Below, in pieces: positions 21,001 to 27,000 of a DNA stretch of 37,078 bases. Positions within the stretch are counted from its first letter, which is position 1. The number at the start of each line of letters is the position of its first letter. Made by a program: the position numbers. Where the stretch lies: the IMG/VR virus record IMGVR_UViG_2537562172_000008, one strand, 5' to 3'. The DNA is from a virus (taxonomy: Duplodnaviria; Heunggongvirae; Uroviricota; Caudoviricetes).

Positions 21001-24000
21001 GGATTCACCATCCCGGCGATTCGGTGTGACGCCTCGGAAGAGACGAGGGTACAACGATGAGAGCATTTATGGAGCCGCGACAAAATGTGGCGCCTTAACA
21101 GGCTAAGTGCTCTCAGCGTTGTGGCATTAGCTCAGTTGGACAGAGCAACCGCCTTCTAAGCGGTTGGTCGCAGGTTCGAATCCTGCATGCCACGCCAGAA
21201 TCACGCCTAAGGACCGTGATGCCAGAAGTTCCAGGGGCTTGGCGGTGATGGTTTCCCTTGAAGGACTACCACCGCCCTTTTTACAGCAGGACGCCATTGC
21301 GATGACTTCATGCTGTAAACCAGTACAGCCACGGAAGGCATAACTCATTGCTTCCAGTTCGCCCGGTTCGCCGGGCATTTTTTTAAGGTGAGATTATGAA
21401 CGACCAGCAAATCGAAAAAGAAATCGTTGAGAAAGGCAAAACGGCACCGCGCGTTACGCCAGACCATATCGAAGGCATTATTGCTCAGGAGGCATATTTC
21501 ACAGCAGAAGATGGTGCCTTTGGCAAAGCCATAAAAGCGAAACATACTGGCGGAGAGGTAAACTACCAGCCGCACGAATCACTTTCTCTGCTGACGTTCT
21601 GCGTCCTGGTGCTGCGCAACGGCTTCACCGTCACCGGAGAGAGCGCCTGTGCAAGCCCGGAAAACTTTGATGCAGAAATTGGTCGGAAGATTGCCCGGCA
21701 GAATGCTGTAAACAAAATCTGGATGCTCGAAGGTTACTTGCTGAAGCAGAAGCTAAGCGAGCAATAACACCGTGACATGTCACAAACAGCCAGCCGATGA
21801 GCTGGCTTTGTTTTATCCTCATCAGAGGATATCAACGACATTATCCCAACCAGCGGATTAAGCATAGGGATCGTAATCTGTGATGGCCTTGCCTTGCTGG
21901 TTCTGCTGCCCGGGAATTCGCAGACGCTTAGACACAGGGAACGCAAACGTCAGCAGTAGCGCATCGCCTTTACCCGGCGAACGCCCAAGCCGCTCCTTGA
22001 TATCTTCCTTCGGTTCGATAACGATTTTACCATCCACTCGAACTTTGTACTCTGCCGCCGACAGGTCGTCTGCTGTTTCCTGGTCATCCAGCATGCCGCC
22101 CAGCCTCAGCCATGTCTTGCATGAATTGAACATCTCCCCACGCTTGTTGAGCATCTGCGGGTCAGTAGACGCGCCACCGAACGGAACAAGTTGCCATGTA
22201 CGACCCCATCCGTCACCGATTGACTTCAGACCGGTTCCGTAACCGAAGTCGATGAACACCGCGTCAGCCTGATACTGGTCTTCAAAGTCAGCGATACGCT
22301 TCGCCATAATCAGATCGTCGGTAGTCTTGTTGCCAGTCCACAGCACCTTACTGTGTAGCCCCTGCCGCAGGTATATCACCGCGTCATCAACGCCTGAATA
22401 TGCCGGGTCAACACCGATTATCACCGGAGCATGCGCCACCTGCGCAGCGGTTACCACCCGTTTCATTGCCTCATCAGTAAGACCGGTAGGGATAAACTGC
22501 AATTCAGATGCATCAGGGAATATGCCGCGCACACGGATTTTAACGAAGTCGCTGTCTTCCCCGTAGTCATCAACCCATTTCTGCAACTGCTGTTTGTTAG
22601 TTCCTTCCACCGTCCGGCTGTCAATCTGCGCAGTTTTCCAGCGGTGTTTATATTTGCGGAAACATTCGCGGAAACGCCCGGTGTTACGTGTAGGGTTTCC
22701 GAACGCTACCCAGATAATCTCAGTGTCTTCGTCCGTAAGCGCACCCTCAGCAACTTCCCACACCAGATCCGCAATGTTCGACGCTTCATCGAATACCACG
22801 ATGATGCGTTTGCGCTCGTTGTGTAGTCCGGCGAACGCCTCAGTGTTGTGCTCAGACCAGGGGATTGCGTCAGCGCGCCACCGCTTGTCGTGCCCAGGAT
22901 CATTGCTGTACATCGCGGTAGCGGTGCAGGTGAACCAGTCTTTCGTGATAGCAAGGTTCGACCACTTGATAATTTCCGGCCAGGTCTTCGTTCGTAGCTG
23001 GTTGTCGGTGTTGGCGGTCACCACGACCTTACAATCCTCGCAAGTGGACATGCCCCAGTTGATCAGCATTGAGATGAATGCGGATTTACCAATACCGTGA
23101 CCAGAAGCGCGTGCCAGCATAAGCGGCTGATAGCGCGTCTCTGGATTCTGCAGGTGATCACGTATCTCTCGGAACGCATCGGCCTGCCACTGACGTGGAC
23201 CGGTGGCGTGCGCCAGCTCTGTGCCTTCCTCGCCCCACGGAAACGCATACAGCGCATAGCCCAGCGGGTCATACGTGAACGAGGCGATATCCTCGACGAG
23301 TTGCTCTTCCGGCGACATGGCTGCGGCTGTCATTCTTCACCACCAGCCTGCTCTATGACGCGGCGCCGGGCGGCGGCCATGCGGTCGGCGATGGTGACCG
23401 TGCCGGAAACCTCCAGGCGCTCTTTGAACGCGTTAACGTCGACGTGCTTACCAATCAGTTCGAGGTTCTTCACCTTGTCAGGCCATTTAATTTTTTTGAG
23501 GATTGTCTCTATCGAATCCTCGTTCATGTTCATGATGGTCGATGACAGATCAAAGCCACTAAGCGTAGTGCGCCAGATTTTCGGCCACTCGCGGATTGGC
23601 TTAAGACTCCCATCGTCGTTGAGGATATCAATCACGTCCATCTGGTCGATCTCCACCAGGCGCATGAGAACGTAATCAGCACTGACGCGCATTCGTTTGT
23701 TGCGCTCCTCCATCAGCTCGGCAATCCGTTTTTGAATGCGTTCATCGCGCATCATGACACTGGCTTTAACTGCCGCTGTATTTGGGGAGAATCCTGCGTT
23801 AATCGCTGCCTGAGTCTGGTTTTCAGGCGTTTTGATGTATGACTGGCAATAAGCCTCCTGCATTGCTGTTAGTGGCTTAAATTGCGTTGATTTGCGTTTA
23901 TAGGTTTTAGGTTCAGCAGGCATCATAACCACCGTGGTAATAGTTACCGTTGTGGTAATAGTACCATGCAAAATAAAGCCGCCATAGTTGGCGGCAGTAT

Positions 24001-27000
24001 TCAAAACCCATCAAATTCATCATGCATAATCTACTCGTGACATGTCACACTATTAATTTCGTTTCATGCCAGCCTTTAGTCACCCAGCATTGCGAGTCAC
24101 CATTACACGGGCATGAATTCACAGGAACTCTCTCGCCGCACTTACCGCAACGTTTTCTGCTGATCGATTTTATACGCCCGTGCACGCGTGCATCATCCTG
24201 GCGGATCAGTAACGCTATATACTCACCAAATTCGTAAGGCGCACGCCCGGGGCGACGCGTGGCACAGTTACGCTCCAGCATTTCAATTTCCTGAGCATCA
24301 AGCACAATCTCCAGCTTACGCACACCAGATGCAGCTTGTCTGGCTCTCTGAGCGGCTTTGCGCTCTGCTGCTGATTTAGCCATTCTGATTTTCCTGCATC
24401 ATGAGAAATACAATCATGGCGGCTCGGAGTGGATTATTCGCATGAAAGCAAATGTTCTCGGCATTAAAAACAGCTGACCACTCACCGCGAGATTGGTGGC
24501 AGGTTAGACTGATTTTATTATCAACAATAATAGGCCATGCATCCGATGGATTATTGCAGTAGTCAGGTAAAGGGTTTAATGGCTCAAAAGTTGTATCAGC
24601 ATTTCCGTAATACCATTTGTTGGTGTTATTCCCTGATGTTTCCGGTTTACATGCCCAAAGGCCTTTAAAAATTATGTCTCCTACCATTCTGTTAATTTCA
24701 AAATCACTTAACTGTGAATAGTCCATCATTTCGCCTCCTGCGGCGGCTCCGGTAGCGGCATCCAGTGAGTTATTTCATGGGCAAGGATATCTGAGCTAAG
24801 TTCCGTCCAACTATTCCAATACCCAGATTCATCCCACCATTTAACCTCGACATGCTCGCCGTCGGTCACTAACACATCAGCATACCCTTTCGGCATTCGC
24901 TCACTACAGCTTATCCAACTATCCGGAGTTCCCGGAGAGTTGCCATTTACATCGAAGTTTGGCTCTGCGTCCTGAACCAGGAGGATGTAACCATTCTTGG
25001 CAGTATCAAGTTCTAACGCCTCGGTGACGGTGCCGAAATAGCGATTACCTAAATCAGCATCACAAGTGCTTACATCAATGGAAACTTCCATGCCCTCGAT
25101 TAATTCTGGCAAGTTGTAAGTTTGGCTTACAGGCTCGACTTCCAGCGATGCCAGAGCAATTTCATAAGCCCGACGCTCAATATTGTCTCGGACGTCCAGG
25201 CTGCCGATTCGCTCTCTGATTTCTTTAATCAGTTCTTTGTCGGTTAAAGTGGTCATGCTGCGTTTCCTTCTTTCTTATTAACAATTACACCGTCATATAT
25301 TTCATTAAGGTGTCCTCTTAGCTCCATGCGCCTTAATGCAGATAACATGTAATCGCATTCAACCTGCTTATTCCCGGTAAATGGCTTATCGTCAGGATTA
25401 CCCCAACAGCAATTACCCCTGGGCCATCCATGTACTTTCCGTACTCTTCCGTTAACAACGTGAAGTAATCCCCAGCCGGGAGGTAAATCCTCAACTGAAA
25501 TAATTTCCGGCTCACTAATAAAGAATCGCCAGTCGCCCATGCCAAGTGAGGGATTTTTACGGAAACGCTTTTTTCTATCTGCCAACAAGTCAGCACGAGA
25601 ACACTTCGCCTCTATCAGGCATGATGCTGAATTTCTGAATCCCATAGCATCTGGCTGTTCTCCGGTACTGGTTACAGCAACAAAGCGGTCATGAAAGCAA
25701 ACCTTGAACCCGTTGCGCTTAAGGAACTTGTACGCAATCTGACAGAGTTCGTGGTGTGTTAACGCCATATCACTCTCCTTTGATGCGAATGCCAGCGGCG
25801 CGCTCGGCTTCACTTTGTTCCCAAAACCACTTGTGAAGCGCCATAAGCTTTTCGTCAATCGGTGCATATTTGCGATTAAAGTAGGCCTGAGCATCTTTCT
25901 CAGATTCGTCCGGTAATTCGCCAGGGCCAAACAGTGTGTTATAAATCCATGCTAGTCCGCTCTTAGCGTCGCCAGTTGCCTGCCATTCGATAATGGCAGC
26001 CTGCATGACCAGAATGTTTTTCCCGATTAATAGGTCCAGTTCTTTGTACCGGTTGCGGATGTATGCATTCTCGCTTTGTAATTTTGCGTTGCGCTTTTCT
26101 GAGGCTTCAAGTAACGCCTGCTTATCGCGTAGAGCTTCTTCCAGTTCAGCAACATGGCATTCACTATCAATAAGGTTGTTCTCTGCTGCTTCAAGCTCAA
26201 CACGCAGCTTCCCAACCGTAAGCGCAATCTCCTCGTTCTCCTGGTCGCGTGATTTGATGTATTGCTGGTTTCTTTCCCGTTCATCCAACAATGCCAGCAC
26301 GGTAACTGGACTGGCTGCGGCGATGAATTCAGCATTGGCCTGCTGTTCCATTTGGAAATCTTCATCGAAACCGCTTTCAGGATGCGCTCCTTCAATTCTG
26401 CAAATGGGAAGATATCCAACAACTTCACGATGAATTAGTGCATCACCAGCATCAAGTCTCTCCTCTCCATATTCGAGCGACCACACACCACACGTTGCTT
26501 TCTCTGCCTTTTCACGCAGTGCCTGATAGTTAATCTTGCTCACTGGTTGCCTCCTTTACGAAGCTGGGCGGCGAACTCGTTAAGTGATATGTAGCAATCT
26601 CCAAATGTTAACGAACCGCTCGACTGCATATGCTCCATAGCCATCTCCACGCCCTGCGCCCGTACTTCAGCCAGGAAAGCATCGGTGGCTGGGGTGTCTG
26701 ATTGCAGAGACTTTGCGCGATAGTCATTCCACCCTCTTGCATACATGGGATTAACTTGCACTCCATCTTTTACGCAATATGCCTGACCTCCACGGTTGAT
26801 AACCTTGATTTCGTCCATAGCGCCAGACTTCAGCCCCGCATTCTCCGCCGCCAGCGCATTAGCACGCACCAGTTGCACTTCCAGTTGCGTTGCCAAATCG
26901 CTGATCAGCTTTGCCACACTGCGCATGTCAACGGCACCACATTCTGCTTTCAGTTCCGAAGCCATCTCATGCCCGGCGGCAACTAACCCTTTGATATTAC

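Follow-up and report, generated by a model that had tools for sequence, protein, structure and literature searches.

Putative prophage repressor operators upstream of terS and a separate gene-plus-palindrome module at the early-late junction of an epsilon15/phiV10-like prophage

We analyzed the junction immediately upstream of the small terminase gene terS in IMG/VR virus record IMGVR_UViG_2537562172_000008, a stretch of 37,078 nucleotides that we refer to in full as the window. A first-pass annotation had proposed a control junction here, built from a gene for a Cys-rich protein of 112 amino acids (aa), a palindrome, an intrinsic terminator and two 11-bp direct repeats; the junction was borne out and all four elements are present as described. 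Our favored reading, to which we assign a probability of about 60%, is that terS has a promoter controlled by the prophage repressor Rep, and that the palindrome belongs to a separate module with the 112-aa gene. The window, an epsilon15/phiV10-like (Uetakevirus) prophage, has 93-98% identity to the Escherichia phages TL-2011b, phiV10 and ZX5 and to other epsilon15-like podoviruses, and the junction is the seam between its early-right operon and its packaging and late genes. In the phiV10 and epsilon15 records the homologue of the 112-aa gene (phiV10 gp55; epsilon15 gp49) is the last gene and terS is the first, and the junction thus corresponds to the conventional "ends" of these genomes. The same four elements recur in epsilon15, SPN1S, Tyrion and phiV10, where the flanks have diverged. 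The junction is real and functional, but its parts are largely of known kinds, and the site of the repeats is already annotated as a repressor site in epsilon15. What is new is the family-wide cassette of gene plus palindrome, which is also found in unrelated phages.

The direct repeats are exact copies of the 11-mer GTGGTAATAGT (23934-23944 and 23952-23962). They are not the functional unit; each is the right half, plus some flank, of one of two abutting 17-bp inverted repeats with a single mismatch to ATTACC-N5-GGTAAT. The first inverted repeat, O1 (ATTACCACAACGGTAAC; 23943-23959, read on the minus strand as 23959-23943), overlaps the last 2 nt of a -10 element and the predicted transcription start. 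The second, O2 (ATTACCACGGTGGTTAT; 23925-23941, read on the minus strand as 23941-23925), abuts O1, with the two centers 18 bp apart, and overlaps the Shine-Dalgarno (SD) sequence and first ATG of terS. ATTACC-N5-GGTAAT is the sequence of the seven protein_bind features labeled "repressor" in the epsilon15 record (NC_004775). One of these features (12-27, TTACCAAAACGGTAAT) lies just before terS and is syntenic with O1, at the same place in six genomes. The window holds 11 matches to the motif at two or fewer mismatches (vs 0.85 expected), and six Uetakevirus genomes hold 11-20 matches each (vs ~1.5 expected). Across these six genomes the syntenic places are terS, gp3, ant/tailspike, the lysis cassette, int, OL, OR and the region after the replication genes. 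In the window, operator-like sites surround the repressor gene (29809; 30521 and 30583), and the other matches fall at 4185 (ant/tailspike), 20783 (before a gp3-like gene) and 27416/27478 (after the replication genes). Abutting pairs also occur at OR, where they are 17 bp apart in both the window (29800/29817) and epsilon15 (33340/33357). The window/phiV10, BUCT554 and L114 types have an O2 that matches the motif well. Among 80 close relatives, substitutions fell in the flanks of the repeats, in the N5 spacers and at the base between the two operators, and the half-sites were invariant. The "direct repeats" therefore match the operator of Rep, which probably binds them.

The window encodes the proteins that such a circuit would use. 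Rep (194 aa; 29880-30464, plus strand) matches the crystallized SPC32H repressor (PDB 5D50_A, E=4e-42) and is expected to occupy O1 and O2. It shares only 42% identity with epsilon15 Rep; the NLVNRW helix is kept despite this divergence, which fits an operator common to the window and epsilon15. The antirepressor Ant (4277-4534, plus strand) matches the SPC32H antirepressor (PDB 5D50_E, E=6.1e-47), and a LexA box (CTGTATAAATATACAG) lies ahead of its gene at ~4240-4255. Binding of SPC32H Rep to palindromic sites is reported to involve a tetramer (PMC9638917). The window resembles SPC32H and epsilon15 in encoding Rep and Ant homologues and in carrying sites at the same places. It differs from epsilon15 in that, as in the phiV10 type, a good second abutting site that is unannotated in epsilon15 covers the terS ribosome-binding site. 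The overlap of an operator with an extended -10 element, by contrast, is a feature that we infer here for the window.

The promoter element in question is TGgTACTAT (23958-23966, minus strand), a predicted extended -10 for a promoter that we call P_terS. It follows directly after the T-tract of the early-right operon's terminator, and its final two bases also begin O1. The element has the TGn of an extended -10, an A at hexamer position 2 and a T at hexamer position 6. A core of TG-n-TA(C/T/G)TAT|TACC-N5-GGTAAT was kept in every terS upstream region that we recovered. The sequence upstream of this core depends on the type: the window, epsilon15 and L109 types have a terminator there, a umuD-like gene stops there in the BUCT554 and L099 types, and the L147 type has neither. 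Substitutions among the 80 close relatives hit the n of TGn and hexamer position 3 and spared the TG and the key -10 positions. The same register of -10 and operator is found at PL (TTGACA-17-AATCAT, 30556-30584), which matches consensus at 10/12 positions. P_terS is thus most likely a Rep-repressed extended -10 promoter for terS and the large terminase gene terL. Its predicted start at ~23950 is plausible and lies within the stretch (23930-23965) where the first-pass annotation had suggested looking for a late start.

The terminator itself (23970-23995, minus strand) consists of GCCGCCA-ACTA-TGGCGGC followed by TTTATTTT. Its stem (23978-23995) has 7 bp, 6 of them G-C, the T-tract spans 23970-23977, and the hairpin is among the six strongest terminator-like hairpins of the window. 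The same hairpin is found in epsilon15, SPN1S and Tyrion, one relative carries a G-U-preserving change (GGTGGC), and the hairpin is missing before terS in L147-type and BUCT554-type relatives. RNA of the junction folds better than shuffled sequences (z=-3.6), which is due solely to the three DNA palindromes and the terminator. No Rfam family was found at the junction; the only match, to rseX, was below threshold and was ignored.

Together, these elements suggest how the junction could work. The hairpin and T-tract would end early-right transcription, and a weak sigma-70 extended -10 promoter (TGGTACTAT) would lie directly after them. O1 would cover the -10 and the start, and O2 would cover the ribosome-binding site of terS. 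In a lysogen, Rep on O1 and O2 would silence terS-terL directly; LexA-controlled Ant would then strip Rep from the DNA, and P_terS would open together with PL and PR. The packaging operon of epsilon15/phiV10-like phages would then apparently be held off by the lysogeny repressor and not by a Q-type cascade. Typing and reporter phages for O157 and Salmonella come from this group, and a repressor-held packaging operon bears on late-gene reporter engineering and on induction.

The palindrome would be a separate module in this scheme, likely bound by the 112-aa protein, which has a predicted ribbon-helix-helix (RHH)/Cys4 architecture. This protein is encoded by the last gene of the early-right operon (24045-24383, minus strand) and belongs to the epsilon15 gp49/N15 gp46 family, listed as PHROG 536 "transcriptional regulator", which comprises 152 clusters at 50% identity among 1.84 billion proteins. 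Its Cys residues are at positions 79, 82, 92, 94 and 99. In an alignment of 57 sequences, C79 and C82 are invariant and C99 is more than 90% conserved, giving the pattern C-x2-C ... C ... C. The predicted layout is a basic N-terminal helix, an RHH domain with the β-strand, helix, helix order of that fold, a long helix, the Cys4 module and a C-terminal helix. The protein matches no Pfam or NCBIfam family and no PDB sequence, and hits to curated RHH families stayed below threshold (RHH_5, 0.013, and RepB-RCR_reg, 0.028, in 2/57 members; YbfE, 0.051). The 112-aa protein is a predicted DNA-binding regulator.

RHH regulators such as P22 Arc and Mnt, omega, CopG and ParG resemble the 112-aa protein in their fold (here predicted), in a basic N-terminal segment and in a short palindromic target with half-sites of 5-6 bp. 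RHH proteins also control the antirepressor region of P22. Unlike these regulators, the 112-aa protein carries an extra long helix and a Cys4 module, its operator lies at the 3' end of its gene and not at a promoter, and it matches no Pfam RHH model at threshold. A PDB profile search over the long helix and zinc module returned TraR (twice) and YbiI as the top three hits at marginal E values (0.02-0.03), and hhalign against TraR gave probabilities of 66% and 52%, which are a lead only. The 112-aa protein shares with TraR/DksA a helix, a C-x2-C-G-x2-(L/I)-P zinc module and a further helix, but its second Cys pair is arranged differently. PF01258 matched none of the 57 family members, the Cys pattern has no second CxxC, and Foldseek searches of BFVD and PDB were uninformative and gave no TraR/DksA support. 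Longer family members proved to be chimeras or miscalls and provide no Rosetta-stone hint.

The palindrome GTGACATGTCAC has three exact copies in the window (4558, 21772 and 24037), vs 0.08 expected, and 0 of 100 shuffles reached three. Directly after copy 1 (4558-4569, minus strand) comes a terminator with the hairpin AGGCCGC-TTTC-GCGGCCT and a T-tract (4557-4540). This copy lies where the head/ejection-protein segment ends, convergent with ant, and is kept in six genomes. Copy 2 (21772-21783, plus strand) lies between terL and an opposite-strand gene similar to Sf6 gp66, 4 nt past the stop of that gene and 4 nt ahead of its terminator (21788-21807). The arrangement at copy 2 is the same in six genomes, although their hairpin sequences differ. 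Copy 3 (24037-24048) overlaps the TGA stop of the 112-aa gene (24045-24047). Three of the six strongest hairpins of the window carry a copy.

Across the six Uetakevirus genomes the copies are exact in 17 of 18 expected cases. The window, epsilon15, SPN1S and Tyrion carry the exact 12-mer at three corresponding places, where the flanks have diverged. It is also exact at two places in phiV10, whose linear record divides the third between its two ends, and one copy in BUCT554 has the center AG. In the six genomes every copy comes after the stop codon of a gene and, read in the direction of the gene, ahead of a hairpin plus T-tract, at a distance of 26-41 nt for copy 3, 0-3 nt for copy 1 and 4 nt for copy 2. 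This association with hairpins suggests that the palindrome acts at the boundaries of transcription units.

The pairing of gene and palindrome extends well beyond these phages. GTGAC-N2-GTCAC was located at the stop of the family gene or 4-9 nt past it at 188 of 203 loci in four subfamilies, and the position is the same in 121/130 distinct homologues with 35-100% identity from Uetakevirus, P2-like phages, N15-like phages and ZF40. In ZF40, an unrelated myovirus, the palindrome lies 2 nt past the TAA stop of the homologue gp22, while the stop of the homologue overlaps GTGACGCGTCAC in a Yersinia P2-like phage and GTGACTGGTCAC in phiKO2 and N15. The palindrome is not kept by coding constraint. 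ZF40 and N15 each carry three copies, vs ~0.02-0.04 expected. The center of the palindrome also tracks the predicted β-strand of the protein (i.e., AT with xRK[LI]E[LI]VL, and GC with [NT]E[ILV]R[AIV][RK]L in two sublineages), and the N-terminal RK.AQR.R helix and outer half-sites are constant across center variants. These comparisons suggest that the palindrome is probably the operator of the 112-aa protein. Since the two further copies in the window lie at terminators that end other units, the protein probably acts at operon boundaries. We commit ourselves only to the palindrome as probably the cognate operator of an RHH protein that acts on transcription at boundaries. Comparative data alone allow an unusually confident prediction of the target site of this small uncharacterized regulator family, and the three-site sets of Uetakevirus, ZF40 and N15 make the pairing directly testable.

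The surroundings of the palindrome vary among relatives. The distance from palindrome to promoter ranges from about 60 to 430 bp, which argues against an activator with fixed geometry, and 18 relatives carry a 70-aa ORF between palindrome and terminator. In some relatives (L092/BUCT554 at ~32011-32480, reverse-complement; L099, L106 and others), the palindrome and terS are separated by a LexA-boxed sigma-70 promoter (TTGACT-17-TATACT) and a truncated UmuD-like gene. The family gene adjoins LexA-boxed DinI-like or small antirepressor-like genes in other lineages. Individual copies lie at 5125, 7622 and 14944 in ZF40 (L088), with one in each early operon, and at 28550, 33237 and 39269 in N15 (L221), where repA contains one copy and another precedes the immA antirepressor operon.

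Two other explanations of the palindrome were rejected. The first is that its GTGACA serves as a -35 element. This fits the window (GTGACA-18-CATGAT, 9/12) and epsilon15 (GTGACA-17-TAAATT), but most other contexts of the family have no -10 at such spacing, and it fails as a general explanation. The second is homology of the protein to MatP. The E. coli matS site is GTGACRNYGTCAC (PMC6907758, Table 2), and its GTGAC/GTCAC half-sites are the same as those of the palindrome. This is a resemblance only: the palindrome is 12 bp long, its spacer is 2 bp and not 3, the window contains no 13-bp site, no sequence relationship of the protein to MatP was detectable (hhalign probability 0.4%), and a four-helix bundle is absent.

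Several points weigh against the favored reading as a whole. P_terS has no -35 element and is not called by a consensus scan, and a promoter repressed by Rep alone gives no obvious delay of the "late" genes. Epsilon15, SPN1S and other relatives have a degenerate O2, and the right half of O2 coincides with the SD, so that part of the conservation of O2 may reflect translation signals. The assignment of O1 and O2 as operators draws on database annotation and statistics, and a single operator specificity is common to all six genomes. For the palindrome, the covariation of center and β-strand comes from two or three independent lineages only.

Among the alternatives for the role of the 112-aa protein at its site, the one that we rank first is that it acts as an insulator or roadblock (or as an Arc-like late repressor). 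The bound protein would block or terminate polymerases at unit boundaries, separating convergent units (the late genes from ant and from the gp66-like cassette) and, in other phages, damping early or antirepressor transcription. RHH proteins are typically repressors, and transcription units converge at copies 1 and 2, where a polymerase traveling in the direction without a T-tract meets the hairpin and then the palindrome 0-4 nt on. One N15 copy lies ~25 nt upstream of a promoter-like element before the antirepressor operon and another inside repA, the ZF40 copies include sites inside early genes of both early operons, and the family gene often adjoins LexA-controlled genes. Copy 3, however, is upstream of a terminator that is already strong, where a roadblock would add little, the position relative to promoters is inconsistent, and the idea is wholly inferential. 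We consider it a tentative possibility that we rank slightly above antitermination.

A broader proposal is that the gp49/N15 gp46 family and GTGAC-N2-GTCAC form an undescribed portable cassette of temperate phages, acting from sites at operon ends on elongating or terminating RNA polymerase. The protein would perhaps be an antiterminator loaded at the site or a bidirectional insulator, with a TraR-like zinc module perhaps touching the polymerase, and about three sites per genome would organize the transcription units of the phage. We regard this as speculative and rather unlikely.

Antitermination of the Q type is likewise unlikely. Here, transcription from PR would read through into terS when the 112-aa protein is bound at the palindrome, and likewise at the other two pairs of palindrome and terminator. 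The layout recalls lambda Q-PR'-tR', in that the regulator gene ends the early-right operon and is followed by a site and an intrinsic terminator before the late genes. Each of the three palindromes has one of the six strongest hairpins 0-41 nt downstream, and this adjacency is kept in six genomes whose hairpin sequences differ. The first-pass annotation had recognized no lambda Q-like gene, and our searches agree: Pfam, NCBIfam and PHROGs revealed no Q-like or other late regulator among the early genes, which include just Cro-like, PerC-like and AlpA-like proteins. The marginal helix-plus-zinc similarity to TraR/DksA, which bind RNA polymerase, would also fit, but it finds no support from Pfam or Foldseek. 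Further evidence points the other way. A putative promoter and operator of its own, both conserved, precede terS, i.e., the late operon would be under a repressor-controlled promoter, unlike that of lambda. Relatives can do without the terminator and the spacing: the 70-aa ORF or the LexA-controlled umuD-like gene is interposed, or the terminator is absent. Unlike the Q site, the palindrome does not appear to be embedded in a conserved promoter, and the protein has neither sequence nor fold similarity to the Q families (Q-lambda, Q82 and Q21). Copy 2 precedes the terminator of the opposite-strand gene and not that of the late operon, the extra sites of ZF40 and N15 are inside genes and have no hairpin, and ZF40, N15/phiKO2 and the P2-like phage carry the family alongside Q-like or Ogr proteins. 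Read-through at the terminator is thus a minority possibility.

The two roles first proposed for the direct repeats fare worse. That they form an activator-dependent late promoter bound by the Cys-rich protein is very improbable. They do lie just upstream of terS, next to a weak promoter without a -35, and the first-pass suggestion that the protein is a regulator holds insofar as it is predicted to bind DNA. The element that tracks its gene across phage families, however, is the palindrome and not the repeats. The repeats are instead halves of inverted repeats of the type found at OL and OR, matching a repressor operator annotated at the same position in epsilon15; in relatives the second repeat is degenerate, and variation affects the flanks of the 11-mers but not the half-sites. 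That the repeats are terminase recognition (pac) sites is the least probable reading of all, since, although they are close to terS, they lie outside it and match a repressor operator motif that occurs 11-20 times per genome and concentrates at the repressor gene and other promoter regions.

The packaging genes downstream of the junction are both on the minus strand. terS (23330-23926) encodes a Terminase_2 protein (Pfam PF03592, E=9.5e-30) and is followed by terL (21858-23333). Translation of terS could start at the ATG at 23926 or at 23923, the latter being the equivalent of the epsilon15 start, and the SD (GGTGG, 23929-23933) lies ahead of both. On the other side, NinX, DUF551 and Ea22-like genes lie upstream of the 112-aa gene on the same strand.

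Other Rep sites of the window show features of their own. The segment 4185-4255 is a divergent control region between antirepressor and tailspike that combines a perfect Rep operator (4185-4201) with the LexA box. Operator pairs 62 bp apart, center to center, are found at 27416-27494 (after the replication genes) and 30521-30599 (OL), and this spacing recurs in phiV10, epsilon15, SPN1S, Tyrion and BUCT554, which suggests bridging by a tetramer. The motif TATGTGGTT(T) was found at 4145, 4524, 20731, 27436 and 30564, on the minus strand only, at intergenic positions near Rep sites; it was not significant, with 13 of 100 shuffles reaching five matches. The recurring TATGTGGTTT motif was not significant.

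Finally, three features lie away from the junction. A tRNA-Arg gene (anticodon UCU; 21121-21197, plus strand) is located upstream of the gp66-like gene on the strand opposite the late genes; the minus-strand ORF that it overlaps (21127-21378, phrog_4647) is annotated as a protein in phiV10. The DUF1064/resolvase-like gene (27069-27413, minus strand; the equivalent of phiV10 gp45) appears split into a 67-aa ORF (27210-27413, phrog_190) followed by a 43-aa fragment, and may be a pseudogene. Within the replication-initiator gene (28313-29128), three adjoining tandem-repeat arrays with periods of 12, 24 and 18 span 28692-28831; the 24-mer array is 100% identical over 2.6 copies, and the arrays look like origin iterons.

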